NCBI GenBank assembly: GCA_030595715.1
Contig: JAUVCN010000001.1
Location: forward strand, 1,418-65,417
From: Thermoplasmatales archaeon
Lineage (GTDB): Archaea; Thermoplasmatota; Penumbrarchaeia; Penumbrarchaeales; Penumbrarchaeaceae
Direction: 5' to 3'
Length of the DNA stretch: 64,000 bases
The notes beneath the pieces are model-generated. The model was not told where the DNA came from, made no database searches, and saw only the letters and a program-made list of their open reading frames with translations. Positions 1,983-63,388 of the stretch are shown here, piece by piece. Within the stretch, counting starts at the first letter, position 1. The number at the start of each line of letters is the position of its first letter. The translations under genes were made by a program, and so were the position numbers.

Positions 1983-7106
<5,124 letters not shown>

Positions 7107-7118
7107 CTTCTCACCTCC

Positions 7119-10100
7119 TCAGCGTAGATCCTCCAGATTCAATCTCATTGCAACACACATCGATTTCAACTCGTCCATGAGTAACTTGAATGCATAGCTT
7201 GTCTGGACAGGATGGATGTTCCCTGTTTCGCCGCAAACCGGACATCTGAGAACTCCCCTCTTGTCAAGCATGGCAACGTTCCCACACAGGGGGTTGCCAC
7301 AGACATACTCGATGGTCCCGTCCGACTCATCAAGGAGCCTGTCCTTGATGACCATGGAAACACCATGGGCGATCAGGCAGTCCCTCTCCATCTCTCCGAA
7401 CCTCAGACCACCCTGTCTTGACCGTCCTTCCGTGGGTTGTCTTGTCAGGATCTGGACAGGTCCCCTTGATCTGACATGCATCTTTCCTGACACCATATGA
7501 TGAAGTTTCTGATAATAGATGACACCCTTGAAGACGTCAACCCTGAGCTTCTTTCCGGTGAACGGGTCATACATTGTCTCTTTCCCGGTATGTTTGAAAC
7601 CGAGATCGTGGAGCTCGGCTCTGAGCTTTTCCTCCTTCTCACCGGAGAAGGCAGTTCCATCAATGAACCTACCGTTCATGGATCCTGCCTTTCCTCCGAT
7701 CATCTCGAGGACATGGGCCACGGTCATACGGGAAGGAATAGCGTGGGGGTTAGTGACCAGATCAGGGGGTATGCCCAGCTCGTTAAATGGCATATCCTCC
7801 GGATTTGCAATATGTCCGATAACACCCTTCTGCCCGTGTCTTGAAGCGAACTTATCACCAATTTCTGGGATCTTTTCGGACCTGACCGTTACCTTCACCA
7901 GCCTCAGTCCGTTCTCGGACTCGGTGATCATGACAGAATCCACATATCCCAACTCCCTTGGCCTGACGGTCAGTGAAGTCTCCCTTCTCCTCCTCGGGGT
8001 AAGGAAGTCCGTATGTTCCTCCAGGAACCTGGGAGGGGAGGTCCTGCCGATGAGGACATCCTTCCCGTTCACATCGAACTCGGGTGATATGATCCCATCC
8101 TCGTCGAGGTTGGTATATGCCTCTTCGGTCCTAGCACCCATGACTTCCGGGTCAGGGATCTCGATCCGATCTTCCTGGCCGCCGGGATACCTTCTTTCCT
8201 CGACAGAGTAGGTCCTGATGAACGTGGACCTTCCCAGACCCCTCTCGATGGAAGCCTTGTTGAAGATGAGTGCATCCTCCATGTTGTATCCTTGATAGGA
8301 CATTACAGCAACGACGAAGTTCTGACCGCCGGGTCTCTTGTTGAAGTTGACGAAATCCATGGTCTTCGTCTGCAACATGGGTTTCTGCGGATAATGGAGT
8401 AGATGTCCCCGTGTGTCGCATCTGATCCTGAAGTTGGAAGATCCCAGTCCGAGTGACTGTTTGGCCATTCCTGACCCCATTGTGATCCTTGGGGATGAGT
8501 TGTGATGAGGATAGCAGACAAGTCCCGAGCAGGTTCCCAGGATCACCATAGGGTCTATCTCCATATGCGTCATTCCGGACTCAATCCCGTTCTCATCCAC
8601 TGCGATCCAGAGATCCTCTTCCTCTTCAGCATCTATCCACTCGATGATGCCCTGCTGAACGAGGTCTTCCCATGTGATCTTGCCATCTACGAGGGACTGC
8701 TTCATACGATCCGTAAGCTTGTGCTGTCCCTTTTCAAGTACGAAGAGAGGCCTTCTAACCCTTCCATCATCGCTGTTGATGATGACCGAGTTCACCTGGG
8801 TATTGTATCTCACATTGATCTCGTTGGATTTCTCTTGAGGCATTGCAAGGAATCCCTGTCTCCTTCTTTTCCTCACGGAGTCCACAAGCCCTTCAGGGTC
8901 GTGATGTATGCCGATCAGGTTGCCGTTGAGGTATACCCTGGCTTCATCCGTGAGTTCCTTTTCGATCCTCCTTACACCCATGTCAAATAGAGTGGACTCC
9001 AGCTTTCTGTCGTCATAACCTTCGGAAATATCGACTATGAGAGCAAGGTTCTTCACAAGACCGCAGTTTTGACCCTCAGGGGTCTCGTTCGGGCAGAGCC
9101 TCCCCCACTGTGTGGGATGAAGATCTCTCGCTTCGAAATGGGGCTGTGACCTTGTCAGCGGTGATGTGATCCTCCTGAGATGAGAGATGGTTGACATGTT
9201 GCAGGTCCGATCAAGGAGCTGGGATACACCATCCCTGCCTCCAACCCAGTTGCCTGTCGCAAGCGCATGGATTATCCTTTGTGAAAGGACATCGGGCCTG
9301 ATGGAGGATGCGACCCTGAGCTTCCTTTTCCTGGTGATGGTCCTCTCGAGCTGATACTTGAGGTCCTTCATCAGAGAGGTGAAGGCTACCCTGAACAGGT
9401 CCTCACAGAGGTCTCCCGCAAGTGATATCCTCTTGTTTGCATAATGGTCCTTATCATCAGGGTCCCTCTGTTTGAGCTTGAGCTCGAGAACCGACCTTGC
9501 GATCCTTCCGAGGTAGATGGACTTCTTGATCCTCTGGTCCCTGTGATCTCCCAGATGGGGAAGGAGTGATTTGTCGATGATCGACTCGACCTTCTTCTCC
9601 CTGAACTCCTTGGCCTGACCGGTTGCAAACTTCTTTTCTAGGTAGTTCAGTGCATCCTCGATAGTGTTGACATTATGGGTCACTGCACATTCTTCAAGGT
9701 TTGCGAACACCACATTGTTCATCCTCTCATCGGAAACGATCGCCTTGGCGATATCCTCATCAGCGTCCATTCCAAGTGCTTTCATGAGGATCACAAGAGG
9801 TATCTGTGTAGGTGCCGCAGGTACCGACACCATGAGCATGCCGTCCTTCTTGTGCTCTACTGCTGTTAGGGCCCTGAAACCCTCTCTCTGCGAGAACACC
9901 TTTGCAACGGCCATGGGAGTGCCGTACTTCTCTTCCCATTCCACAAGCACCCTGTTGGGTGACAGGTCCTCAAGGGAGATCAGAGATCTCTCGGTCCCGT
10001 TTATTATGAAATATCCACCAGGGTCCAATGGGTCTTCCCTCATGTCCTGGAGCTTCCTGCCATATTGGTCATCTGTAAGGTTCCTGTCCTGGCTCAACAT

Positions 10101-10532
10101 CTCCCGATGAAGATTGCACCTCTTGGACTTGATCATGATGGGCAGGTCGCCGATCTTGACCTTCTCCGGTTCCCTGTCTATCCCATTCTCGATGATGGTG
10201 AACTCCAGGAAGATCGGAGAGGAATAGGTAAGGTCCCTCAGCCTTGCCTCCATGGGAGTAAGCTCATGGGTTGCGCCATTTGCTTCCTTGACTATCGGGG
10301 TCCCCACAGTGATCCTTCCAAGTTTGATATCTATGGAATCCTCATCAAGCTTGTCAACATCGAGCCTGATGATCCCCCTTTCATTGTCGACCTCACCGAT
10401 CCTTATGGAATCGATGATCCTCTGCATCCTTGATTTGGGATTATCATGGGTTGGCAGAAAATCATTGAACGATGCCATTTGATGGTTGATTATATTACGG
10501 CTACTGAAGAAAGCTTCGACTACTTCTTTCAT
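7119..10532 (-). CDS. rpoB: DNA-directed RNA polymerase subunit B (Rpo2, unsplit)
   Basis: 1137 aa, a single ORF containing both the B'' and B' portions. It ends with the Zn ribbon CGNPLCGNVAMLDKRGVLRCPVCGE. Confidence 0.95.
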   Translation of the reverse strand: MKEVVEAFFSSRNIINHQMASFNDFLPTHDNPKSRMQRIIDSIRIGEVDNERGIIRLDVDKLDEDSIDIKLGRITVGTPIVKEANGATHELTPMEARLRDLTYSSPIFLEFTIIENGIDREPEKVKIGDLPIMIKSKRCNLHREMLSQDRNLTDDQYGRKLQDMREDPLDPGGYFIINGTERSLISLEDLSPNRVLVEWEEKYGTPMAVAKVFSQREGFRALTAVEHKKDGMLMVSVPAAPTQIPLVILMKALGMDADEDIAKAIVSDERMNNVVFANLEECAVTHNVNTIEDALNYLEKKFATGQAKEFREKKVESIIDKSLLPHLGDHRDQRIKKSIYLGRIARSVLELKLKQRDPDDKDHYANKRISLAGDLCEDLFRVAFTSLMKDLKYQLERTITRKRKLRVASSIRPDVLSQRIIHALATGNWVGGRDGVSQLLDRTCNMSTISHLRRITSPLTRSQPHFEARDLHPTQWGRLCPNETPEGQNCGLVKNLALIVDISEGYDDRKLESTLFDMGVRRIEKELTDEARVYLNGNLIGIHHDPEGLVDSVRKRRRQGFLAMPQEKSNEINVRYNTQVNSVIINSDDGRVRRPLFVLEKGQHKLTDRMKQSLVDGKITWEDLVQQGIIEWIDAEEEEDLWIAVDENGIESGMTHMEIDPMVILGTCSGLVCYPHHNSSPRITMGSGMAKQSLGLGSSNFRIRCDTRGHLLHYPQKPMLQTKTMDFVNFNKRPGGQNFVVAVMSYQGYNMEDALIFNKASIERGLGRSTFIRTYSVEERRYPGGQEDRIEIPDPEVMGARTEEAYTNLDEDGIISPEFDVNGKDVLIGRTSPPRFLEEHTDFLTPRRRRETSLTVRPRELGYVDSVMITESENGLRLVKVTVRSEKIPEIGDKFASRHGQKGVIGHIANPEDMPFNELGIPPDLVTNPHAIPSRMTVAHVLEMIGGKAGSMNGRFIDGTAFSGEKEEKLRAELHDLGFKHTGKETMYDPFTGKKLRVDVFKGVIYYQKLHHMVSGKMHVRSRGPVQILTRQPTEGRSRQGGLRFGEMERDCLIAHGVSMVIKDRLLDESDGTIEYVCGNPLCGNVAMLDKRGVLRCPVCGETGNIHPVQTSYAFKLLMDELKSMCVAMRLNLEDLR

Positions 10533-10598: not shown

Positions 10599-10853
10599 CT
10601 ATAGACCGGTCTTCTCCTCAACAACAAGTCTGTAATAATTGGAAGCTCCCGCGGTCGGGCTCTCCCTCTCGATCTTGATCACCTGCCCGGGTTGAGCTGC
10701 CAGGGCTTTGGCACATGGATCTGCCATCAGGATCAAAGGGAGCTTTCCCTTTACGATCCCGTACTCCTTTAACAACTCATCGACCTCTTCTTCCGACATT
10801 ATCGAATGTCTCGGAACGAGGTAGTTCTCCATAACGTTGAACTGTGGCATCAT
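10599..10853 (-). CDS. rpoH: DNA-directed RNA polymerase subunit H (Rpo5)
   Basis: 84 aa with the typical RpoH motif HSIMSEEEVDELLKEYGIVKGKLPLILMADPCAKAL. A GGAGG sits 6 nt upstream of the ATG. Confidence 0.85.
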   Translation of the reverse strand: MMPQFNVMENYLVPRHSIMSEEEVDELLKEYGIVKGKLPLILMADPCAKALAAQPGQVIKIERESPTAGASNYYRLVVEEKTGL

Positions 10854-10904
10854 GAGGTCCTCCTGGGCCGGCGGGTAGACAGCGTTGTACCATATCAGGA
10901 GGAA

Positions 10905-11020
10905 GTGGCGGGTCCGAGGGGATTCGAACCCCCGGCCATCTGGTTAAAAGCCAGACGCTCTTTCTAGGGAAGGCGGCCTCAGAATAGACCGAGCATCCTA
11001 CCTAGCTGAGCTACGGACCC
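10905..11020 (-). tRNA. tRNA-Lys (anticodon UUU) with an approximately 38-nt intron at a non-canonical D-arm position; CCA is encoded
   Basis: The minus-strand read is GGGTCCG TA GCTC AGCTAGGTA[G GATGCTCGGTCTATTCTGAGGCCGCCTTCCCTAGAA A]GAGC G TCTGG CTTTTAA CCAGA TGGCC GGGGG TTCGAAT CCCCT CGGACCC G CCA. It has a 7-bp acceptor stem, a GCUC/GAGC D-stem, an anticodon loop CU-UUU-AA and a TTCGAAT T-loop. Intron CCUAG can pair with D-loop CUAGG, giving a BHB-like helix. Confidence 0.75.
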
Positions 11021-11322
11021 AGAATTACCCTTTCCGCTACCCGATACGGTCAAGACGAGAACGTGCATAATACCTTTATTATTTAACTGTTTGCATCAAT
11101 GTCCCCTATCGGGTAGGATAATGGGATATCAGCCCCAGATCTGTATATGTAAATCCCCGATATGAGGTGCAAGAGGACAAAAGCATTAAATGGTTAGAAA
11201 CGGAATTATCCTTACCGCATCCGAAGGTCAAGACACATGGGAAGAGGATAGCGGGGTCGTTCTTGCTTAGATCTGATTTTTGAGGATCTTCATATATCAG
11301 ACCATCGTTGTTGATCCTTACA

Positions 11323-15093: not shown

Positions 15094-15480
15094 TCATACA
15101 AGGCTCAGCTTCCCATTCGGGAAATCCAGGGTCATCCTGAAATGCTTCAGGAAATTCAATCCGAGCAGACCTTCGACCCTTGTTTCGGTGGGCAGGTCAA
15201 AACTCGCAACCTCGATGTTTTTCACGGTCTTTCCCATTATTTCAATAGAATCGACCCTTACAATATCAACATCAACCGTTCCACCTGCCGTCTGAATATG
15301 CACAGACCTTGCAGTGATAATAGTTGATGAGCCGATCTTCTGAATTACCTTACCCGGGATCATGGTGATGGATGCTCCAGTATCAAGGATGAATTGGACC
15401 ATCCTCTCTCCATCCGGACCGGAAACCGACCCATCCAGAACTATAGCTGTACAATCACGACTAATGGAGGCCTCTGACAT
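15094..15480 (-). CDS. Retropepsin-like (clan AA) aspartic protease
   Basis: 128 aa with the catalytic FILDTGAS motif. The size and layout fit a single-domain retropepsin that dimerises. Confidence 0.7.
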   Translation of the reverse strand: MSEASISRDCTAIVLDGSVSGPDGERMVQFILDTGASITMIPGKVIQKIGSSTIITARSVHIQTAGGTVDVDIVRVDSIEIMGKTVKNIEVASFDLPTETRVEGLLGLNFLKHFRMTLDFPNGKLSLV

Positions 15481-15862: not shown

Positions 15863-17851
15863 TCACATATCATCGGGTCCGTTATGCCACGGATCATAGC
15901 CTGGTGTGGTATTCTCATCGATGGCGGGTCTGAAGGCCGGGTCCCCGTAAACTGCGAAGAACGTCACCTCGTACCAGTCTACCCCTCCATCAGGGTTCAT
16001 AGGAGACGGTTGATTGTTCGGCCCATAGTTCATGTATCTGTTCTCCGACCACTGGACCGCCTTCCCGATCGTCCCGTGCTCCGGGTGGTTCAGGATCCCA
16101 TCCCAGACGAATGCATACCATGCATCGTTGTGGTCCCATCTGTGATCATCGACGAAAGGAAGGTATTCGGCTGGAAGTGAGGTCAGGTCCTGACCGATGT
16201 TCGAGAAGGAAACCTCTGTAGCTCCCACCAGGACCGCGGGACCGGCTGCGAGATAGTTAAGTGTCAACAATTTGTCGAATGCAACATCGCTTCCCGGATC
16301 AGTTCCGGGACCATGTCCGTATATCTTTCCATTCAGACAGGATACGAAGAATGCTATTTGAGGTGGAACGTTCATTGCAGCTGCATCGGAGTACCTGAGC
16401 TGATGTTCATCACCATTGGGCCCGTAGACCCTTATACCATATAGGGACCCTGTATCGGATCCATGGCCCCTGTAGGCCACGTATCCAGCTCCCTCGCAGA
16501 TCTCCGTGAGATCGTTTTCCATGGAATTCACAGTTCCATCAAGGAACTTGTTTCCAGTATTGAAGGGGCCAATATAATCATAGGTGAATCCGGCATCCTC
16601 GAAATCTGTGCAGATCCATCTTGCAGGAGTTGCCTGCATTCTCTTGTAAGTAATGTCAAAACCAGAGAATGAAGCGCCATGCTCTCTCCATGTCTTTTCA
16701 TGGGTCCCACCGGCAACGTCCCTGTAATCCACTGTTACCGTCTCAGAGAAATCATCGAAAAGATAGGTTTTCAACAGCTGATTTGATGCAAGTGACACTT
16801 CATACTGGATTATCCTGCCAACAGCTGAATCCATCCGGGAATTATCGCTGTCCATGAATCCATACATGACATCGGAATTAACGATCTCGGTCGATCCTTC
16901 CTCGGGTTTGACAAGGAACTGTGGAACTGCCGTTGCGGACCCTGTGATAGCCACATATTCAAGTGGCCCGAAGTCGTTGTGGACATTGACAAGCTTCTCG
17001 TGATATCCAAGAGCTCTCCTATTCTGAGAGAGCTCCAGGTCCAGGACCCAATCGGTGTTATCCTGTGGTGTTGCATTGGTTATGACATATGCATCGTAAT
17101 ACGCCGACATCTGGGCCGCCATCAATGAGATATCGGGACAGAACCACGCATCATCATATGAGTCATATTCAGGCGTGCTACCGATGGATTCAAGCGAATG
17201 ATCGTTTGGATTTGCAACGATCGCATAGTTCGATGACACACCAATGTCCTTCAGGTAGGACCAGGTCTGTTCCTGATCGATAAAGGTCCTTTCCCCCTGG
17301 ATCACAGCCAGTCCCATATTCTTGGCATATGCAGCTGCCCAGAGGGACTCCTCGTAATCCTCCACGGTGAGGATATCATTGAAACCTATGAAACTCCTGG
17401 ATATGTCTGTGGTGAGTGGATATACATCTGTATCATTGACAGGGCTCAATCCCTCGGTGGAAAGCTGCTGATTGATATTTGCAAGGCCTGTTTCCTTGTT
17501 GGTAAAAAGAACCTTGGGTCTGTCGGTGTTCAGATGAGTGAGGGTGTAGATCTGCTGGCTTGAAATGCCGCCCTCGGGATCGCATATCACAAGAGGACGA
17601 TATATATCCCCCATGAACTGGACCGATGTTAGAGTCGATATGGCGAACAACTCATTTTCGGTTGTGGGATAATCCACGATCATCATGAAATCCTCGGGCA
17701 GGGCATTCACAGGAGAATATATATCCGGGTCCTTGTCGTCATCTCCCAGTAGCAGGACCGCAACGACCCCAATAAGTAGAAGTATCACAAAGGCAGCGGC
17801 TCCGATCTTCAATCCGGTTTTCCTCGATCGACCATCCATCCTGTTCGCCAT
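15863..17851 (-). CDS. Membrane-anchored extracellular protein with a predicted His/Cys peptidase domain (C25/gingipain- or clostripain-like caspase fold)
   Basis: 662 aa with an N-terminal signal-anchor (KIGAAAFVILLLIGVVAVLLL). Candidate catalytic dyad motifs are YVAYRGHGSDTGSLYG and QIAFFVSCLNGKIYG. A paralog is encoded at 59529..61928. Confidence 0.55.
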   Translation of the reverse strand: MANRMDGRSRKTGLKIGAAAFVILLLIGVVAVLLLGDDDKDPDIYSPVNALPEDFMMIVDYPTTENELFAISTLTSVQFMGDIYRPLVICDPEGGISSQQIYTLTHLNTDRPKVLFTNKETGLANINQQLSTEGLSPVNDTDVYPLTTDISRSFIGFNDILTVEDYEESLWAAAYAKNMGLAVIQGERTFIDQEQTWSYLKDIGVSSNYAIVANPNDHSLESIGSTPEYDSYDDAWFCPDISLMAAQMSAYYDAYVITNATPQDNTDWVLDLELSQNRRALGYHEKLVNVHNDFGPLEYVAITGSATAVPQFLVKPEEGSTEIVNSDVMYGFMDSDNSRMDSAVGRIIQYEVSLASNQLLKTYLFDDFSETVTVDYRDVAGGTHEKTWREHGASFSGFDITYKRMQATPARWICTDFEDAGFTYDYIGPFNTGNKFLDGTVNSMENDLTEICEGAGYVAYRGHGSDTGSLYGIRVYGPNGDEHQLRYSDAAAMNVPPQIAFFVSCLNGKIYGHGPGTDPGSDVAFDKLLTLNYLAAGPAVLVGATEVSFSNIGQDLTSLPAEYLPFVDDHRWDHNDAWYAFVWDGILNHPEHGTIGKAVQWSENRYMNYGPNNQPSPMNPDGGVDWYEVTFFAVYGDPAFRPAIDENTTPGYDPWHNGPDDM

Positions 17852-17876: not shown

Positions 17877-18782
17877 TCAATCATTATTCATCTTCCCAGA
17901 CTCCACGAGAAGACTGAGCTCCTCAAGAGAGAGGCTCTCACCACTTTTGTATTTTGCAAGAACATCCACCAAACGTCGATCGTTATCGGACCTTCTACGC
18001 TCCTGGGGTGACTTGTCGAACTCCTTCTTCAATTCATCTATCTTGCGATAGTAGGAAGTGACCTCCTTTTTGATCTTCCATCCATGCTTCTTCAGGGCCT
18101 TGACCTCGTTCAATGCATTGATGAATGCTTTGTGCTGGGCCTGGGCTTCATCCCTTACATCATCTCTCTTTGCCCAGAACTCCTTGGCGCTTATCAAACC
18201 TTCATGGGATTCGGATTTGAGATCACCGATCTCGTGTTCCATCTCGCCCATTTCCTTGTTGTATTTCTTGAGGTCGATCTCTTTGACCCTCACTATCTCC
18301 CTGTGGATCACGTCTGCCATGGATTTTACGATCAGGCGATCACGGAGCTCGAACAGGAAATCATAGAGGTATAGCTCGTTCTTCAGGCTGATATCGTCAT
18401 TTAGAAGATTATCCTTTGTCTGCTCGAAGTTCATCTTCAGTCGATCGAAGGTTCCCCGGGATGCATGATTATGAGAATCCCTCACCTTCCTGAGCTCACC
18501 GATCCTCTGAAGATATGGCTGCATCTCCTTGTAGATCGTTCTCTTTTCCGTATTCATCTCTTCGATATTCTCCCAGACAGCTTTCCTCTTCTCCAGGATC
18601 TGTTTTGGTTTCTGAGACAGGTCCTTGACCTTATCATTGAGCTCATCCCTCTTATCCTTGAATGAATCCACTTCGGAGAGCTTGTTCTTGATCTTGACGT
18701 GAATGATCTCCTCTTCATCCCGGAGCTCGTTGATCTTCTCCCTGACCTCGCGGATCTTTCCAGCGATCTCGAAGTTCTGCAT
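17877..18782 (-). CDS. Archaeal coiled-coil protein (COG1340-like)
   Basis: 301 aa, almost entirely heptad-rich, charged alpha-helical sequence. The start overlaps the stop of the upstream gene. Confidence 0.7.
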   Translation of the reverse strand: MQNFEIAGKIREVREKINELRDEEEIIHVKIKNKLSEVDSFKDKRDELNDKVKDLSQKPKQILEKRKAVWENIEEMNTEKRTIYKEMQPYLQRIGELRKVRDSHNHASRGTFDRLKMNFEQTKDNLLNDDISLKNELYLYDFLFELRDRLIVKSMADVIHREIVRVKEIDLKKYNKEMGEMEHEIGDLKSESHEGLISAKEFWAKRDDVRDEAQAQHKAFINALNEVKALKKHGWKIKKEVTSYYRKIDELKKEFDKSPQERRRSDNDRRLVDVLAKYKSGESLSLEELSLLVESGKMNND

Positions 18783-20602
18783 CAGGCCACCTCCTTCTTC
18801 TCTTCCACGATCTCCCCTTTCTTTCCATCCTCTATCTTCACCGGGGGATCCTCCTTCCTGCTCTCTTTTAGACCTTCTTCGGTCTTACTTTCTTTCTTCT
18901 GTTCTTGCTGGGGGGCCTTGTTATCCTTCTTCTTATCTTCCGGGATCTCCAGTTTCTTTCCATCCTCGATCTTCACCGAGGGATCCTCCTTATTGATCTC
19001 TCCATTACCCTCTCCGGTCTTGCTCTCTTCCTTCTTTTCGGAGGGGATCTTGTTATCCTTCCTCTTATCTTCCGGGATCTCCAGTTTCTTTCTGGGACCT
19101 GACCTTCTATCAGGCTTCGATCCCTCCTTCCTGCCGTCCCTGTTTTCGAAGACCTTCAAAAGTTTATCCCTGATCTGCTCATTCGATCTCTTGTCCTCTT
19201 CATCATCCATCTGGGCAGCCTTGTCTCTCTGCCCTTCCCAGAAAATTGCCATCTCTTCATGGAGCTGGGTCCTTCTCTCGAGCCATCCCTTTCTGCTCTC
19301 CTTTTCACGGATCTTTCTCTGGGCACCGATGAACTTTTCATGATGAAGATTTGACTCTTCCACCTTCTCGAGCAATTTCGAGTGGAGGTCCTCGATACTT
19401 ATCAGATTCTGTGATATCTTCTCCTCGATCTCGGTCAGACTCTGTTTTATCTCCTCGGGTGTGAGACCGTCGGTTATTGACCTGATCTTCTGCATCGTCT
19501 CTTTGACCTCATCAAGAAGTCTCCTTTCAGTGGCGATGTCAATGGCCTCGGTCTCCAACTTCCATTCCAGGTCCTGGATGTAAGATTGATGCATGCGAAT
19601 ATCTTGTTCATGGTCCTTGACCTTTTCTTCCTTCCTTATCAGATCGAAGAACTGCTGGCGAAGTTCCTTGTTCTCTCCCTTCAGCCTGGTCCTGCCATCT
19701 TTGAGATCAGCGACCTTCTTGTTTATCTGGTCGCGTTTTACTTTTTCTTCATCAGATTCCTCATCGGCCTTTTCGGGAGGTTTCTCAAGGTCCTTTTTCT
19801 CCTTGATATATTTCTTGATCAGGTCCTTGTGTTTCTTTACGATCCTATCGACCATCACCGCCCTCTTTTGGATCTCGATATCCTTCAGCATTTCCGAACC
19901 GTCTTCGGGGATTGGTGGGAATTCTATCTTCTTCGGAGGTTCCGATCGATCCGGTTCCTTCCGGTTTCCCTTCTCTTCATCCTTGGATATTTTCTTTGAT
20001 CCCTCTTGAGGTGCACCTGTCGATCCCTTTTCATCCTTCTTCTCTTCGGGTCCATCATCCTTTTTCTTGGAGGGGGCCTTCACCTTTTCTGCAGAAGGTT
20101 CTTCCATCTTCTCTTCAACAGGATCTTCTTCCTTCTTGGAAGGGGCCTTCACCTTTTCTGCAGAAGGTTCTTCTACCTTCTCCCCGGCAGGATCTTCTTC
20201 CTTCCTGGAGGGAACCTTCACCTTTTCTGCAGAAGGTTCTTCTACCTTCTCCCCGGCAGGATCTTCTTCCTTCTTGGAGGGAACCTTCACCTTTTCTGCA
20301 GAAGGTTCTTCTACCTTCTCTTCAACAGGATCTTTTTCCTTCTTGGAGGGAACCTTCACCTTTTCTGCAGAAGGTTCTTCAACCTTCTCCCCGGCAGGAT
20401 CTTCTTCCTTCTTGGGATCAGGTTCGGATATCTCATCGATATTCTCTTCTCCATTTTTCTCCTTTTCAGGAGTTTCGTTCTCTTTGATATCGGCCTCCGG
20501 GGCTGGAGCTGGCTTGACCTCGACGGAAGGGACATTGTCCTTTTCATCCTCTTTGGTCTCAACCTTGCTCGCCTCGGTCGTTACATCCTCTTTCTCTTTC
20601 AT
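18782..20602 (-). CDS. K/E-rich tandem-repeat protein with a central COG1340-like coiled-coil core
   Basis: 606 aa. The N-terminal region has 5 copies of a 23-aa repeat (KKEEDPAGEKVEEPSAEKVKVPS). The centre is a coiled coil. The C-terminal region has 2 copies of a roughly 44-aa repeat (KKLEIPEDKxKDNK...VKIEDG). Confidence 0.7.
   Translation of the reverse strand: MKEKEDVTTEASKVETKEDEKDNVPSVEVKPAPAPEADIKENETPEKEKNGEENIDEISEPDPKKEEDPAGEKVEEPSAEKVKVPSKKEKDPVEEKVEEPSAEKVKVPSKKEEDPAGEKVEEPSAEKVKVPSRKEEDPAGEKVEEPSAEKVKAPSKKEEDPVEEKMEEPSAEKVKAPSKKKDDGPEEKKDEKGSTGAPQEGSKKISKDEEKGNRKEPDRSEPPKKIEFPPIPEDGSEMLKDIEIQKRAVMVDRIVKKHKDLIKKYIKEKKDLEKPPEKADEESDEEKVKRDQINKKVADLKDGRTRLKGENKELRQQFFDLIRKEEKVKDHEQDIRMHQSYIQDLEWKLETEAIDIATERRLLDEVKETMQKIRSITDGLTPEEIKQSLTEIEEKISQNLISIEDLHSKLLEKVEESNLHHEKFIGAQRKIREKESRKGWLERRTQLHEEMAIFWEGQRDKAAQMDDEEDKRSNEQIRDKLLKVFENRDGRKEGSKPDRRSGPRKKLEIPEDKRKDNKIPSEKKEESKTGEGNGEINKEDPSVKIEDGKKLEIPEDKKKDNKAPQQEQKKESKTEEGLKESRKEDPPVKIEDGKKGEIVEEKKEVA
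18823..19090 (-). repeat. In-frame roughly 130-bp tandem repeat, 2 copies, in the C-terminal region of the K/E-rich protein
   Basis: The string ttatccttcttcttatcttccgggatctccagtttctttc occurs twice. The protein units are KKLEIPEDK(R/K)KDNK...PxVKIEDG. Confidence 0.7.
20070..20420 (-). repeat. In-frame 69-bp tandem repeat, 5 copies, coding for KKEEDPAGEKVEEPSAEKVKVPS units
   Basis: Direct repetition is visible in the DNA (cttggaaggggccttcaccttttctgcagaaggttcttc...) with a period of 69 nt. Confidence 0.8.
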
Positions 20603-24501: not shown

Positions 24502-25626
24502 ATGACCATGAATGACCAATGGGCCCATGTTGAGGTCCTGAGGCTTGGTCACAGACCTGAGAGAGATAAACGTATCACAACACATGTTGCACTTGTAGCG
24601 AGAGCCTTCGGAGCTTCTTCGATCCATATTGATACCAAGGATCCTTCCCTGGAGAGGAACATTGAGAGCGTCACCGATCGCTTTGGTGGTGATTTCAGGA
24701 TAGAGACAGGTGTCCCAAGAAAGAGAGTGATGGGAAGATGGGCCGGGACCATAGTTCATCTGACGATGTATGGAGCCCCACTTGACGATACGATCAGGGA
24801 GATCCCGGAAGGAGAGGATGTCCTCGTGATCGTTGGGGCGGAGAAGGTGCCTGCCGATGTCTATGACCTTGCCCATTTCAATATCGCCGTGGCAAATCAA
24901 CCCCATTCCGAGGTATCCGCACTTGCCCTGTTCCTTGATCGATTGTTCAAGGGAAAGGAGATAAAGCGTACCCTTGGCGGTGGAGAGGTAAAGATACATC
25001 CCACGAATGTGGGAAAGATCGTTGCTGACCATAACGATATTACTTTCGAACAGATCATCGATCCTTTTGAAATGGACATCGATCCCGTTCCTTCAAAGGA
25101 GGATTGCCTTGGACTTCTCCTGGCCCTTGGGATCTCGAGACCGGTCCTGACCCATCTGAAAGAAGTCCATAGACTCGGAATGGAAATGGTCAAGGCCTCC
25201 CGCAAGATCGGAACCCTGCCGGATCTGGACCTGGGCCTGCTCGAGGCCGGCCTTCTGTTGCATGATATCGGAAGGGCAAGGACCCATTCGATCAGGCATG
25301 TAACGCTGGGAGCGGAACTTGCCAGTAAATTGGGACTGGATGAAAGGATCGTCTCGATCATTCATAACCATATAGGGGCGGGCATCACAAAGGGTGAAGC
25401 ATCGGATATCGGCCTTCCAGCGGAGGATCATATCCCGTTGACACTGGAGGAGATGATAGTTTGCCACGCGGATAATCTGGTGGGCGATCACAAGCGCAGA
25501 CCACTATCTGCAGCATTGGAAAGATTGCGGATCAAGGGCGCGAATGCTGCGATAGCCAGAATGGAAGCGCTTCATGAAGAGCTCGAGACATTACTTGGAA
25601 TTGATATCGATGAATTGATAGGGTGA
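24502..25626 (+). CDS. tRNA (cytidine56-2'-O)-methyltransferase aTrm56 (SPOUT) fused to a C-terminal HD-domain phosphohydrolase
   Basis: The N-terminal roughly 180 aa carry the aTrm56 signature VLRLGHRPERDKRITTHVALVARAFGA. The C-terminal roughly 185 aa carry an HD motif LLLHDIGRARTHSIRH...IHNHIGAGI...CHADNLV. Confidence 0.8.
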   Translation: MTMNDQWAHVEVLRLGHRPERDKRITTHVALVARAFGASSIHIDTKDPSLERNIESVTDRFGGDFRIETGVPRKRVMGRWAGTIVHLTMYGAPLDDTIREIPEGEDVLVIVGAEKVPADVYDLAHFNIAVANQPHSEVSALALFLDRLFKGKEIKRTLGGGEVKIHPTNVGKIVADHNDITFEQIIDPFEMDIDPVPSKEDCLGLLLALGISRPVLTHLKEVHRLGMEMVKASRKIGTLPDLDLGLLEAGLLLHDIGRARTHSIRHVTLGAELASKLGLDERIVSIIHNHIGAGITKGEASDIGLPAEDHIPLTLEEMIVCHADNLVGDHKRRPLSAALERLRIKGANAAIARMEALHEELETLLGIDIDELIG

Positions 25627-41182: not shown

Positions 41183-42382
41183 TCATTCCTGCCCCGCTGG
41201 TTCTTCCACATGAGGTTCCGTTCCTGGAAGAGGTTCATCTTCAGTTATCTTTGAAGATCCATCGTTCGAAGGAGGTGGGGTAGAGATGTCGGAGGGGGCC
41301 TCCTCTGCAGGGGCTTGTTCCTCCATAACCTCCTCCTTATGATCTTGTTCCAGTGTGTCCGATGAAGGATCAGATCCCTCTGGAACTTCCTGTTGATGCT
41401 CTCCATACAGGTCCTCCTGTGTAAGGACCTCCTGCAGGGGTTCTTCCACGCTACCCTGTTCCGGGTAATCTTCGATCGGGGAAGGTGCTACAGGCATTGC
41501 TTCCATCGATGCTATGTCAACTTGCTCCTGTTCGCCCTCCAATGGAACTGCCATCATCAACTGTCCCTCCATTGGCATGGATGTTATTGCTTCCATTCCT
41601 ATGCTATCAGGTGATGTGATCGGGCCTCCGATCCTCGTTGCAGTTCCCAAGAAATCATATTCGTCCATGGAAGTTGAATTGTACAATTGTGCATACTGCT
41701 CAGGGTCCAGATAGTAGACCTTGTCCTCGATTATGGACCTGAACGCATAGTAAGGTCCATCTTCAGGGTTGAAGAACAAATTTGCATCCTTTGACCTTCG
41801 CCTGAAGAACATTATTGTCGCAACTATTGTGAGGATAATTGCAATGATGATGGCAAATGCCATAATAATGGGTAATAAATTCATCCCCTCATCCTCTGGA
41901 ACATTGTTCACATTATAGACTATCCTCAAACGAACGGTAGCATTTTCCCAGGCTCCGGGAACAGTATCGCTTTCCTGCTGAGGATTGAAGAACATGATCG
42001 ATTTGTCTTTATTGTTGGGGTTCTCAACATCTACTGACATCAAGGTAGATACATTCGTCCTTACGAAAATTGATTGTTCCTCAGCGATCTCATAACTTCG
42101 TACGTTGATCGACCGGGATGAGTCCAGGATCAATATGTTGATACCCCGGGGTATAAAATCATCGGAAGATGCTGACTTGAAGACTATTGTCAGTTCCAGG
42201 ATATCTCCTTTGGAATCAAAATCTTCCAATGTCAAAGGAATAGGGACCCCTGGTGGAACCGGATATGGATCGATAGTGACCTTACCTTCGGAATCTTCCG
42301 AGATGAACGCTATGAATGCTACAGCAAATATCACTGATACTGCTAATATTGGAAAGATCTTCCTCATACAGGACACCCCCAA
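41183..42382 (-). CDS. Type-I membrane protein with an acidic cytoplasmic tail
   Basis: 399 aa with a signal peptide, a roughly 150-aa ectodomain and the TM helix LLPIIMAFAIIIAIILTIVATIMFF. The tail is E/P/Q-rich and resembles the tail of 32934..36491. Confidence 0.6.
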   Translation of the reverse strand: MGVSCMRKIFPILAVSVIFAVAFIAFISEDSEGKVTIDPYPVPPGVPIPLTLEDFDSKGDILELTIVFKSASSDDFIPRGINILILDSSRSINVRSYEIAEEQSIFVRTNVSTLMSVDVENPNNKDKSIMFFNPQQESDTVPGAWENATVRLRIVYNVNNVPEDEGMNLLPIIMAFAIIIAIILTIVATIMFFRRRSKDANLFFNPEDGPYYAFRSIIEDKVYYLDPEQYAQLYNSTSMDEYDFLGTATRIGGPITSPDSIGMEAITSMPMEGQLMMAVPLEGEQEQVDIASMEAMPVAPSPIEDYPEQGSVEEPLQEVLTQEDLYGEHQQEVPEGSDPSSDTLEQDHKEEVMEEQAPAEEAPSDISTPPPSNDGSSKITEDEPLPGTEPHVEEPAGQE

Positions 42383-59528: not shown

Positions 59529-61928
59529 ATGGGTTTCAGTTTCAAGGGTAAAGATGAAAAGAAAGTAAAAATTGCATTTGCAGTAATTGCGATATCCCTT
59601 CTCATCATTTCCGGGATCCTCGTAATAAAAGGATTCATCGGATCCGATGGTGGAGGTCTTGTCCTCGAGATCACCGATGTTCTTGACCTTGTTTCGGAGA
59701 GACGAACAGGATCATATGACCACATTATCCTGGAGAGCGATGATAGGATGGGGGCGCTTGTGGCTGTACCTCTTGCCTGCTGGTATGATATTACAGACGG
59801 GTCATCCGAACTCTTCCCGCTGCTTGTGGGAAAGAACGATGCCACGGAGAGATTCACCTCATATACTCAACCTGCAGATGAATTGTATATAGAGGACCTT
59901 CCCGAAAAAACGGCAGAAAGGTTCCATAACAGCGCTGAACTTGCCAGGATGGCATTCGTAGGATCTGCTGGTTTCATGCTGATCTCCGATTCCGACGAGG
60001 GGTACGAACTCGGTCTGATATCGGCTCCAATGGCATCCTATCTGAACATACCAGCCCTTGTGGCTGATGATAGGATCCATACGTATGAGGTCAGTTCTTT
60101 TTCCAACGATCTTGGATGTACATACGTGATAGCCGTGGGGGAAGAAGCAGTTGACATTGCCAGGAATGCGGGATTGAACAGGATAGAGATAATGAATGGA
60201 ACAGAAGCATTCCTCGATACTGCAACGGTTGTCGAGGATCGATTCTCCAGACTCGATTACATGACCCTGACAAATCCAATGGACACCATTGCTCCCTATC
60301 TCGAGAATGATATCATGGACGAACGTTCCCAGGATGTCGATTCCATCCTGGTAGATACCGGTTCAAGGGACCTCGACCTTCTTGGTGAATCCGTAATGAC
60401 GCATGACATCGAGGTTCTCGAGGGTATCGTGAACCTCCGGATCAACGTCAATTTCACGGATATCCAGGCTCATCCACTTGACCCCTTCAAGGATCGATTG
60501 AACGTCGATCCCATGAGTTTCCTGACCCTGACGGATACGGAGGGAAACCTCGTGGCATCCTCCCCGAGCTTTGCGGTTGGATACGGGAAGAACTTCGTGG
60601 AGAGCCTCGTCGTTGATCACCCTGGAACCTACCGGTTGGAGGTCAAGGTCTATTACGGGGTGAAAGGTCTCTCAACGATGATGGGAACCTCCTTCGGCAT
60701 CTCCAGATTGGAAGGGACCTACTCCATAGAGACGCATAACAGGGTCCTGTCACAATCTCATCTTCCGATGTACGAGGACCTGTCCATGATGGCACCATAC
60801 CTGTCTGCTTCCAGGGGTGGCCTCGTAATAGCTTCTTCGGATCTTTCCTTGTATAGACCGGAGGATATCGATGAGTATAGGGGTTACAGTAGTGGACCTT
60901 GGTACCAGAAAGACCTTCTCGAGTTCGGGAAGAACAGGGCTGAGAACAATGCCGAGATACTGAGGTCTAGGATCGATATGCTTCCCGAGGAATTGAAGAA
61001 TACCTATATCAGTGAACATGGGTGGCTGGCACTTCTTGGTGGAGGGAATATGATCCCCATGTCATACGAGGAGAAGGACCCGTCCTGGGTGGAAAATGAG
61101 ATCTGGGGAACCGGTTGGGCTACGGACCTGCCGTATTCACTTGACCTCGTCCTATCAGTGGGGAGACCTCTCGGGAGGGACCTATCCGATGTTTCGGCCC
61201 TCATTGCAAGGACCCTCTTCTACGAGGAATACACCGAAGGTCACATCGAAGCGATGAGCATCAAATACGGAAACTCGGGAACGTTCAAGGACCATTTCCA
61301 TTTCCTGGCGGGAGAGGGCGGCGGAAGGACTGGGTGGCTGTTCCACCAGAGGGAATTCTCTGCCATCGCCGAGGACCACGGTTTCATTTCCGAGGTCTAC
61401 ATGCAGGACTACGAGAATGGAAGGGAATACATGGTATCCCAGGGAGCTTTCGAGAGGGCCAATTACTTCGAGATGATCCTTCACGGTGACTGGTCCTGGT
61501 TCTCTCCAGAGCTTAACGGTTGGGACAGATATTCCACGGGTGTCAGGGTGACGGATATCATGAGGGAACCTCTTGACTGGCAGCTTGGACCATCAGTGTT
61601 CAATTCCGGTGTCTGCCTTCTGGGTAGGCTCGGAGGCCTTAGGCCGGAACAATCCATCACCCAGGCATTCTTCCATGCAGGGATCAACGCGTTCTTCTGC
61701 TCCACGAGGTCCACAGGATCAGAAGCAAAGGCAGGTCCCATCGAAGAGGCTTTGTTGTTCGAGGACCTATCCACAGGTGAAGCGATAAGGAAGGATAAGA
61801 GGGACAATCCCGCACCACCCACATTCTTTGTGAGGACCCTTTATGGAGATCCGGCTTTCAACCCGTATGAACCTGAAAATGGTTATGGTGACCAGGGAAG
61901 ACCTCAGACTGTAAGGTCACTTGCATAA
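59529..61928 (+). CDS. Membrane-anchored extracellular protein, paralog of 15863..17851 (C25/clostripain-like His/Cys peptidase fold predicted)
   Basis: 799 aa with an N-terminal TM (IAFAVIAISLLIISGILVI). Candidate dyad motifs are MILHGDWSWFSP and FNSGVCLLGRLGG. The C-terminal motif YGDPAFNPYEP is shared with the paralog (YGDPAFRPAID). Confidence 0.55.
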   Translation: MGFSFKGKDEKKVKIAFAVIAISLLIISGILVIKGFIGSDGGGLVLEITDVLDLVSERRTGSYDHIILESDDRMGALVAVPLACWYDITDGSSELFPLLVGKNDATERFTSYTQPADELYIEDLPEKTAERFHNSAELARMAFVGSAGFMLISDSDEGYELGLISAPMASYLNIPALVADDRIHTYEVSSFSNDLGCTYVIAVGEEAVDIARNAGLNRIEIMNGTEAFLDTATVVEDRFSRLDYMTLTNPMDTIAPYLENDIMDERSQDVDSILVDTGSRDLDLLGESVMTHDIEVLEGIVNLRINVNFTDIQAHPLDPFKDRLNVDPMSFLTLTDTEGNLVASSPSFAVGYGKNFVESLVVDHPGTYRLEVKVYYGVKGLSTMMGTSFGISRLEGTYSIETHNRVLSQSHLPMYEDLSMMAPYLSASRGGLVIASSDLSLYRPEDIDEYRGYSSGPWYQKDLLEFGKNRAENNAEILRSRIDMLPEELKNTYISEHGWLALLGGGNMIPMSYEEKDPSWVENEIWGTGWATDLPYSLDLVLSVGRPLGRDLSDVSALIARTLFYEEYTEGHIEAMSIKYGNSGTFKDHFHFLAGEGGGRTGWLFHQREFSAIAEDHGFISEVYMQDYENGREYMVSQGAFERANYFEMILHGDWSWFSPELNGWDRYSTGVRVTDIMREPLDWQLGPSVFNSGVCLLGRLGGLRPEQSITQAFFHAGINAFFCSTRSTGSEAKAGPIEEALLFEDLSTGEAIRKDKRDNPAPPTFFVRTLYGDPAFNPYEPENGYGDQGRPQTVRSLA

Positions 61929-62032: not shown

Positions 62033-63388
62033 GTGGATATAGTCGTTGAGGAATACAATTGTAATATGAAATCCAGAAGCAGGGGAGCTGCAATTTCTTT
62101 GATCTTTCTATTTCTTCTGACCTTCGGTTCAATGGGAGCCCTCGGAGATGGCGTGGTCATCAATTACGAGTCTGTTGACCTTCTCAAGGAGGAGAACCAG
62201 ATCACGATCATCCACCATGAAAATGGGCTGCAGAGGATGGTAGTATCCATTCAAACTGAGGAAGTTGGAACATCAAGGTCCGTCTGGATATTCCCAGTCC
62301 CCGCATTACCCAGCAGCATCAACATCTCTATTGAAAAGACATTCCCCATCCTTAAGGGAGAGAACATAGAGAAAGCTGCAGACAAGGAGTTGAATGATCT
62401 TAAGAGGAGCATACACATGATGCATTTCGCCTCGCTCATTCCAATGGGAAGGATCCTTCTGGGCATGGATTCCATGTCAGACTCTACTGGATCACTTGGT
62501 GAGAAAGGCAGTGTCAGCATTCATAAGGTGATCGAAGCGGATGGAGTTCACTCGGAGGTGGTCTCATCCTTGAGCGGAACAGATATCCTGGACCACCTGA
62601 AGAACAATGGACTCGACATATCGACCGACCTCCTGCCCCAGCTTGACCATTACATCGATGGAGATTTCACATTCATTCTATCCTGGATCGTGAATATTTC
62701 AGAGCTTGGTGCTAGACCAGGTATCTATCTTGAGTTCCCCACAGAACAGATATTCTATCCGATGTATCTCACAAGCGCCTACGGAGATACAAGGATCCCA
62801 GTTGACATCATAATACTGGACCATGTCATACCAGATAACAGGGAGGAACTTGGATATTCGATCAAATGCACATATTTTGGGTCCGCGTATATGTATGTAA
62901 TAGATAATGAAGGTACAACCTACTCGACCTGGGAAGAAAATTGTGGTGAGATCTCATGTTTTCTCGGTGCTGTCTCCGGTGACATGTATCGTTTCACCTT
63001 GATGGAAATCGATACAGAAGCTCAAAATTTCGATAGGGACCTGACCTTTAGTTCATATCAACCAAAGGTCAGGGAATTGAATTGGGATGATGAATGGGGA
63101 TCCGCTGTCTTCACGATGTTCCTTTTCTCATTATTATCCTCTATCCTGCTTTCGACATCCATCAGCTACATTCTCTTCAAGGATGACAAGAAGCAGATGG
63201 GAAGGTATGCCCTGATGGGACTTCTCAATCCATTCTGGATCTTCCTTTTTGTTATTACCTTCACATTGGTCTCGGTGATATCAAAGTCTGATTGGAAGAG
63301 ATCACTTGTATATCTGTTCTGCTTTCTTGTCCTTCATTCACTTTCAATAGTAATGTTCGTGGAACTCTATTTCCATATCAAGTTCTAA
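62033..63388 (+). CDS. Secreted protein with a C-terminal polytopic membrane anchor (hypothetical)
   Basis: 451 aa with a signal peptide, a roughly 330-aa ectodomain and about 3 C-terminal TM helices. It lies directly downstream of the peptidase paralog. Confidence 0.55.
   Translation: MDIVVEEYNCNMKSRSRGAAISLIFLFLLTFGSMGALGDGVVINYESVDLLKEENQITIIHHENGLQRMVVSIQTEEVGTSRSVWIFPVPALPSSINISIEKTFPILKGENIEKAADKELNDLKRSIHMMHFASLIPMGRILLGMDSMSDSTGSLGEKGSVSIHKVIEADGVHSEVVSSLSGTDILDHLKNNGLDISTDLLPQLDHYIDGDFTFILSWIVNISELGARPGIYLEFPTEQIFYPMYLTSAYGDTRIPVDIIILDHVIPDNREELGYSIKCTYFGSAYMYVIDNEGTTYSTWEENCGEISCFLGAVSGDMYRFTLMEIDTEAQNFDRDLTFSSYQPKVRELNWDDEWGSAVFTMFLFSLLSSILLSTSISYILFKDDKKQMGRYALMGLLNPFWIFLFVITFTLVSVISKSDWKRSLVYLFCFLVLHSLSIVMFVELYFHIKF

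Follow-up and report, generated by a model that had tools for sequence, protein, structure and literature searches.

A tRNA-Lys(UUU) gene interrupted in its D-loop at the rpoH locus of an uncultured Thermoplasmatota archaeon

Close upstream of rpoH in the window, the 64-kb stretch of DNA analyzed here, lies a sequence that takes on the shape of a tRNA once a segment of its D arm is taken out. Does this locus hold a functional tRNA gene, is the segment an intron, and what could remove it? An earlier note on this DNA had read the locus as a tRNA-Lys(UUU) gene with an insert of about 38 nt in the D arm rather than at position 37/38, and both points stand. Deleting a 38-nt insert leaves a 77-mer that ARAGORN identifies as tRNA-Lys(ttt), with a perfect cloverleaf and every stem intact; the anticodon loop is uninterrupted, and orthologues at the same locus agree. 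The case draws its interest from the host lineage, from deep conservation at a single locus and from relatives that carry several introns in the same gene.

The interrupted gene and its surroundings

The gene, its parts and its neighbors are as follows.

10906..11020, minus strand: complete tRNA-Lys(UUU) gene including the intron and the encoded CCA, 115 nt (112 nt to the discriminator)
11000..11020, minus strand: exon 1, positions 1-20 (GGGUCCGUAGCUCAGCUAGGU), with the 5′ strands of the acceptor stem and the D stem and the D-loop through U20
10962..10999, minus strand: intron of 38 nt (AGGAUGCUCGGUCUAUUCUGAGGCCGCCUUCCCUAGAA), with predicted ends at Sprinzl 20/21
10909..10961, minus strand: exon 2, from A21 through discriminator G73, with the 3′ strands of the D stem and the acceptor stem, the anticodon arm, the variable loop and the T arm
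10947..10949, minus strand: anticodon UUU, in the uninterrupted loop CUUUUAA
11075..11086, minus strand: TATA-like box UUAAAUAAUAAA, a candidate promoter by inferred function, 55-66 nt upstream of the tRNA
10599..10853, minus strand: rpoH, 84 aa, Pfam RNA_pol_Rpb5_C, 52 nt downstream of the tRNA
7119..10532, minus strand: rpoB, unsplit, 1137 aa, after rpoH

Read on the minus strand from 11020 to 10906, the gene is GGGUCCGUAGCUCAGCUAGGUAGGAUGCUCGGUCUAUUCUGAGGCCGCCUUCCCUAGAAAGAGCGUCUGGCUUUUAACCAGAUGGCCGGGGGUUCGAAUCCCCUCGGACCCGCCA. The earlier note had given it a span of 10905-11020 (116 nt), which does contain the gene but runs one base past the CCA, leaving a true length of 115 nt. That CCA is encoded in the genome, as the note had also claimed. 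It is shared with three close relatives (L005, L007 and L032 in our numbering of loci), while two others (L003 and L004) have CUA at this place and different 3′ trailers occur farther out among the relatives. Conservation of the gene therefore does not extend to the encoded CCA.

After removal of the insert the sequence has the features of a tRNA-Lys(UUU): an anticodon loop of 7 nt, U33, the anticodon UUU and a purine at position 37. Because the loop CUUUUAA is uninterrupted, the window gene has no intron at the canonical 37/38 position. Even unspliced, the RNA of 10906-11020 (minus strand) is predicted by RNAfold to form all four tRNA arms, namely the acceptor stem, the D stem GCUC/GAGC, the anticodon arm (UUU, loop CUUUUAA) and the T arm, with the insert folded into a CUAG(G)/(C)CUAG helix and an inner hairpin. 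The energy of this fold is -51.1 kcal/mol (z = -2.58), and 3 of 200 shuffled sequences fold equally well.

Standard searches nevertheless pass the gene over. ARAGORN in its default mode called no tRNA anywhere in the 64-kb window, and Rfam at gathering thresholds gave no match to the gene. In E-value mode the Rfam tRNA model (RF00005) matches only 10917-10966 (minus strand); at 28.3 bits this match falls below the family's gathering score of 29, and it spans model positions 8-63 and skips the D arm. Such a score is expected of a gene that is interrupted in its D-loop. The E-value scan of the whole window also returned a tmRNA match of 16 bits at exactly 10906-11020 (minus strand). We reject a tmRNA identity as an artefact of the tRNA-like ends of the tmRNA model, although these ends are consistent with the boundaries of the gene.

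Downstream, the rpoH start codon is 52 nt away, close to the 50 nt proposed previously. The spacer (10854-10905, minus strand) holds no oligo-T run and has a GGAGG ribosome-binding site at its end before the rpoH ATG. The tRNA may be co-transcribed with rpoH, rpoB and rpoA. Upstream, the box UUAAAUAAUAAA is the only conserved A/T-rich block in an alignment of six sequences from the clade to which the window belongs. The leader of ∼54 nt that follows this TATA-like box (11021-11086, minus strand) is well conserved in the same six sequences, and the DNA farther upstream is not alignable. In addition, a CRISPR-DR57 match of 23.7 bits occurs at 2969-3004, inside rpoA, and is most likely due to chance.

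The insert among syntenic orthologues

A search with RpoB, taking one genome per GTDB species, yielded 80 loci for comparison. Labels of the Thermoplasmatota type (Thermoplasmatota, Thermoplasmata, Methanomassiliicoccales, “Methanobacteriota” and similar), together with a few plain “archaeon” labels, account for 77 of them. The other three, labeled “Halobacteriales” (two) and “Firmicutes bacterium” (one), are probably bins that carry a wrong label. Closest to the window are L002-L007 and L032, which are metagenome-assembled genomes of uncultured “Thermoplasmatota archaeon” with 87-92% RpoB identity, and the rest share 56-66%. With the two exon halves as BLAST queries and direct parsing afterwards, we located a syntenic tRNA-Lys(UUU) upstream of rpoH in ∼70 loci, with some of the parsed tRNA 3′ ends corrected by eye. 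Linkage between the tRNA and rpoH is conserved over most of the 80 loci.

Both exons are readily recognized in these orthologues, and this comparison is the strongest argument that the gene did not arise by chance. Exon 1 is 100% identical to that of L005, L007 and L032 and matches many more distant orthologues at 18 of 18 positions, and exon 2 shows 87-100% identity by BLAST. An insert at the same site, 24-51 nt long, is present in 47 of the 68 parsed syntenic orthologues, including clades at only 56-66% RpoB identity to the window. The remaining 21 have no D-loop insert: 18 are intron-free, plain 73-nt tRNA-Lys(UUU) genes and 3 carry a T-loop intron only. In most insert-free orthologues the D arm reads GCUC-AGCUAGGUA-GAGC, and the spliced product of the window gene is identical to its intron-free syntenic orthologues at 61-67 of 73 positions.

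Within the window clade (the window gene with L003, L004, L005, L007 and L032), the ends of the insert, AGGA at its start and UCCCUAGAA at its finish, are conserved, while the interior differs freely. Metagenome-assembled genomes that belong to this clade include JAFGJI01, JAWOCK01, JBLIRL01, CAZLVP01, JAUVLN01 and JAGLEG01. Conserved ends around a free interior are the pattern expected of an intron that is constrained only by its splice motif.

We placed these genes on a neighbor-joining tree of RpoB, which as a single-gene tree is indicative and in which the placement of L030, L036, L043 and L045 was ignored, the longest open reading frame of these loci probably not being rpoB. Several deep clades have the D-loop intron, among them the window clade and loci labeled Methanomassiliicoccus, and it is absent from the clades of loci labeled Methanomethylophilaceae, DHVE2 and “Thermoplasmatales”. 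The intron sits at one site in most of the Thermoplasmatota lineages sampled, a distribution which suggests that it is old and was lost several times.

Additional introns interrupt the same gene in other lineages. Many relatives have a T-loop intron at 59/60, between GGUUCGAA and UCC, which forms a good bulge-helix-bulge with the T stem as outer helix. In Methanomassiliicoccus, of which a cultured member exists, the orthologous gene combines D-loop and T-loop introns. A 37/38 intron is additionally present in 13 relatives. Ten genes (L011, L019, L021, L022, L024-L028 and L031) have all three introns, at 20/21, 37/38 and 59/60, and ∼25 further relatives combine the D-loop and T-loop introns. 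The window gene has the D-loop intron only. The three-intron genes lie at about positions 1870-2230 of their respective loci.

Pairing, junction and covariation

The elements of the predicted splice motif are listed below.

11002..11005, minus strand: 5′ strand of the central 4-bp helix H, formed by exon C16, U17, A17a and G18, pairing with 10964-10967
10964..10967, minus strand: 3′ strand of helix H, formed by intron CUAG
10999..11001, minus strand: 3-nt bulge at the 5′ splice site, made up of G19, U20 and intron A, with the predicted cut after U20
10961..10963, minus strand: strand of the 3′ splice site, A, A and A21, with the predicted cut before A21
10996..10998, minus strand: 5′ strand of the inner helix h′, GGA, pairing with UCC at 10968-10970
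10978..10993, minus strand: intron-internal hairpin CUCGG-UCUAUU-CUGAG, present in the RNAfold minimum free energy (MFE) and centroid structures; its sequence is not conserved in relatives

The junction cannot be read from the window gene alone, which because of repeated A and G residues is ambiguous between 20/21, 21/22 and 22/23: deleting 10961-10998 or 10960-10997 gives a product identical to that obtained by deleting 10962-10999. In each case the D arm becomes GCUC-AGCUAGGUA-GAGC, identical to that of intron-free orthologues. A scan of deletions with ARAGORN accepted far too many of them on such short sequences, and the junction was placed instead by orthologues and by the geometry of the bulge-helix-bulge. 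Across relatives the first base of the intron varies between A, U and C, whereas the base preceding GAGC is always A. Introns that start with U or C restore the conserved A21 only if the junction is 20/21. The geometry of known introns leads to the same site. Anticodon positions 34 and 35 lie within the central helix of 37/38 introns (PMC4090602), and therefore the cut follows the second nucleotide of the bulge; by this rule, cleavage here would occur after U20 and before A21. The predicted splice site is thus 20/21, inside the D-loop, where a single base separates it from the 3′ half of the D stem. The earlier note had correctly assigned the insert to the D arm, and its placement between the D-loop and the 3′ half of the D stem is refined accordingly.

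The note had also proposed that D-loop CUAGG pairs with intron CCUAG as the helix of a bulge-helix-bulge. This pairing is real in the sense that it covaries in relatives, where CUAG/CUAG is replaced by CCAG/CUGG, GUAG/CUAC or CCCG/CGGG. Two refinements concern the length of the central helix and the form of the 3′ site. A fifth pair, G19:C, competes with the first pair of the inner helix, G:C. In L016, L035 and L070 this inner pair has become A:U, the intron base next to H being U rather than C. The compensatory change assigns this base to h′ and not to a pair with G19, leaving a central helix of 4 bp and G19-U20-N as a bulge of 3 nt. H and the inner helix are separated by this bulge of 3 nt in 48 of 48 intron-bearing genes, with A, U or C as its third base. 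The inner helix itself has a median of ∼5 consecutive pairs across genes and 3 in the window gene.

On the other side of the helix, the strand holding the 3′ splice site lies opposite unpaired A14 and G15 (11006-11007), creating a 3 × 2 internal loop in place of a strict bulge. Since these two bases face the site in the window gene and in 48 of 48 intron-bearing genes, the motif is of the relaxed HBh′ type rather than strict hBHBh′, in the nomenclature of Marck and Grosjean as used in PMC5829648 and PMC4090602. It has one complete helix-bulge-helix unit with one splice site, and the other site falls in a non-canonical loop. Two features of EndA substrates are present, a 4-bp helix between exon and intron and a 3-nt 5′ bulge closed by a helix of at least 2 bp, and the bulge-helix-bulge register is only 3.2 kcal/mol above the MFE structure.

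We assessed the pairing in an alignment of 34 columns from 37 distinct sequences, built from fixed offsets from the exon boundaries and hence anchored on exon homology, not on pairing. Standard pairs fill 95.4% of the cells, compared with 26-47% after a shift of the 3′ partners by one to three columns. The covariation score is 0.412 versus 0.141 for shuffled alignments, and none of 500 shuffles reached 0.412. In helix H, where 96.6% of cells pair, three of the four pairs show compensatory change, as do all five counted pairs of the inner helix h′. The D stem, by comparison, is invariant save for one G-U pair.

Other kinds of insert were considered and set aside. At 38 nt the segment is too short for a box C/D guide RNA and lacks C/D boxes, and group I and group II introns are excluded by its size and by the lack of any Rfam match.

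Removal of the intron and known D-loop introns

The following course of splicing would account for these features. In the primary transcript, D-loop C16-G18 would pair with intron CUAG to make the central helix, 4 bp long, of a motif resembling a bulge-helix-bulge. G19, U20 and the adjoining A would form the 5′ bulge of 3 nt, which the intron-internal helix GGA/UCC would close, and the 3′ site would fall just before A21, on the stretch that links the central helix to the D stem and opposite unpaired A14 and G15, as a relaxed HBh′ site. The archaeal splicing endonuclease EndA would presumably cut after U20 and before A21, and a ligase of the RtcB type would join the exons. Splicing would free G18 and G19 for the normal interaction of D-loop and T-loop and give a standard tRNA of 76 nt. 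We consider it very probable that 10906-11020 (minus strand), in an uncultured Thermoplasmatota archaeon, is a functional, intron-bearing gene for tRNA-Lys(UUU) whose transcript is processed in this way, with cleavage, ligation and the exact cuts deduced from the motif.

Introns in the D-loop are already known as a kind in archaea, and splicing has been demonstrated for two, in tRNA-Glu of Methanopyrus kandleri (20b/21, HBh′; PMC5829648) and in tRNA-Thr2 of Aeropyrum pernix (PMC3241643). The pre-tRNA-Glu(UUC) of M. kandleri (Kaneta et al. 2018, PMC5829648) is a close parallel. Its host is likewise of the euryarchaeal type, its intron lies in the D-loop just before position 21, and its central helix is formed by the D-loop and the 3′ end of the intron, with one well-formed bulge and a relaxed second site. 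The present gene differs in being a Lys rather than a Glu isoacceptor, in having the D-loop intron only, whereas the M. kandleri gene has a canonical intron too, and in the conservation of its intron over a phylum-level group at one syntenic locus. The EndA of M. kandleri is of the (αβ)2 form. In the pre-tRNA-Thr2(UGU) of A. pernix (Hirata et al. 2011, PMC3241643) the intron is again in the D-loop; EndA removes it, its splicing has been shown in vivo as well as in vitro, and its cleavage is slower than that of 37/38 introns, whereas splicing of the intron described here is predicted. A. pernix is a crenarchaeon with an (αβ)2 EndA that carries a Crenarchaea-specific loop, and its motif is described as a canonical bulge-helix-bulge, unlike that of the window gene, where the 3′ site faces two unpaired bases.

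Bulge-helix-bulge introns away from 37/38 are also known from the multi-intron tRNA genes of Thermoproteales and from the non-canonical introns collected with tRNAscan-SE 2.0. Table S7 of the latter work (PMC8450103) gives 6 non-canonical introns for 3 genomes of Methanomassiliicoccales and a single one for 5 of Thermoplasmatales. These Thermoplasmata cases are counted but not described, and the uncultured clade of the window is outside that set. Our literature search found no paper describing non-canonical introns in Thermoplasmata, the counts of Table S7 being the sole trace. The same table lists tRNA genes with three introns only in Thermoproteales (PMC8450103), unlike the ten Thermoplasmatota relatives with three introns in tRNA-Lys(UUU). 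The earlier note had called non-canonical introns typical of particular archaeal lineages. The D-loop intron is indeed there, but its host belongs to Thermoplasmatota, outside the intron-rich lineages to which such introns are classically linked. In many members of a group that is usually described as having 37/38 introns only, selection maintains an intron in the D-loop whose 3′ site is relaxed.

Which enzyme could remove it? The note held that an endonuclease of relaxed specificity is required, which may reasonably be expected from the literature on D-loop introns (PMC5829648, PMC3241643). According to reviews, only (αβ)2 and ε2 enzymes handle relaxed or non-standard introns efficiently (PMC4090602, PMC4033280, PMC6379350), and Euryarchaeota with α4 or α′2 enzymes have single introns at 37/38 only (PMC4090602, PMC4033280). 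The only characterized Thermoplasmatota endonuclease, the 289-aa EndA of Thermoplasma acidophilum, is an α′2 enzyme classed as “narrow” in specificity (PMC6379350). The α′2 EndA of Archaeoglobus fulgidus hardly cleaves a D-loop intron in vitro unless the Crenarchaea-specific loop is grafted onto it (PMC3241643).

Pfam scans of 48 open reading frames found no endA in the 64-kb window, and tblastn with Methanocaldococcus jannaschii EndA gave no match in the window or in any of the other loci. Among the best 120 of 5349 matches in a profile search for EndA, the named organisms were Methanococcales, Methanopyrus, Thermococcus, Geoglobus and similar; none of these 120 was labeled Thermoplasmata or lay on the complete chromosomes CP070732, CP070736 or CP070751.

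It is possible, if doubtful, that the intron is real but is removed otherwise than by a conventional narrow-specificity EndA, whether by an EndA variant that has a specificity loop, by another subunit architecture or after the 3′ site has been remodeled by a helper factor or a modification. The relaxed form of that site, the poor performance of α′2 enzymes on D-loop introns (PMC3241643, PMC5829648) and the α′2 architecture of the T. acidophilum enzyme (PMC6379350) all point in this direction. The distribution of introns in other euryarchaeal orders points the other way. Methanosarcinales and Methanocellales have α′2-type enzymes. The tRNAscan-SE 2.0 tabulation lists non-canonical introns in other euryarchaeal orders, these two among them, and if these orders do have α′2 enzymes, the rule linking endonuclease to intron is already leaky. 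On a broader and rather unlikely view, which we offer tentatively, the 20/21 intron would be an ancient, phylum-wide feature of Thermoplasmatota, joined in some lineages by introns at 59/60 and 37/38 and processed either by an ordinary α′2 EndA or by an undescribed variant of broad specificity. If an ordinary α′2 EndA does process it, this would contradict the rule that relaxed introns at non-standard positions are left to (αβ)2 and ε2 enzymes. The present case offers a natural test of the proposed co-evolution of endonuclease architecture and intron position.

Three further readings deny that a spliced tRNA-Lys is made at all. The locus could be a tRNA pseudogene that was disrupted by an insertion, is not spliced and has no function, in keeping with the silence of standard tRNA finders and of Rfam at gathering thresholds, and with a 3′ splice site that is not a canonical bulge. 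We regard this as very improbable. Across deeply diverged lineages, 47 orthologues share the position of the insert; this, with exon stems that are all intact and a splice motif maintained by compensatory changes, forms a pattern that a dead gene would not hold, and the locus retains a conserved promoter-like box and leader.

Retention of the insert, as an extra arm of an unusual mature tRNA of 112 nt, would fit the stable fold of the unspliced RNA, with its four arms and additional hairpin. In that fold, however, G18 and G19 are sequestered. Moreover, even loci at 87-92% RpoB identity show no conservation in the interior of the insert, the length of the insert varies between 24 and 51 nt, constraint falls only on the ends that form the bulge-helix-bulge, and sister lineages lack the insert, making this reading hardly credible.

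The chance is negligible that the gene is instead the tRNA-Ser(AGA) with a long variable arm reported by ARAGORN -i (tRNA-Ser(aga), 96 nt, 19-nt intron in the anticodon loop at 35/36). The D stem of that structure is defective, and what it takes for a variable arm, with mismatches, is the true Lys anticodon arm. Orthologues of this locus that are intron-free are ordinary tRNA-Lys(UUU) genes of 73 nt made up of exon 1 and exon 2, and covariation backs the helices of the D-loop intron instead.

The preferred reading, a D-loop intron in a working tRNA-Lys(UUU) gene, has a practical consequence. With default tRNA finders and Rfam missing the gene, the presumably essential tRNA-Lys(UUU) would seem to be absent from genomes of this lineage. 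Two calls at 10906-11020 (minus strand) are pitfalls for annotation: the tRNA-Ser(AGA) of ARAGORN -i and the 16-bit tmRNA of Rfam.

Elsewhere in the 64 kb, neither ARAGORN nor Rfam, even in E-value mode, detected a second tRNA gene. Several long open reading frames lack a Pfam match, two at E ≤ 0.001 (41183-42382, minus strand, 399 aa; 62033-63388, plus strand, 451 aa) and two at E ≤ 1e-5 (18782-20602, minus strand, 606 aa; 59529-61928, plus strand, 799 aa). A 128-aa protein with a retroviral-type aspartyl protease domain (15094-15480, minus strand) is encoded near a 662-aa peptidase of family C25, gingipain-like (15863-17851, minus strand). The window also contains an open reading frame of 374 aa (24502-25626, plus strand) that combines an aTrm56 domain, that of the tRNA C56 2′-O-methyltransferase, with a C-terminal HD domain.
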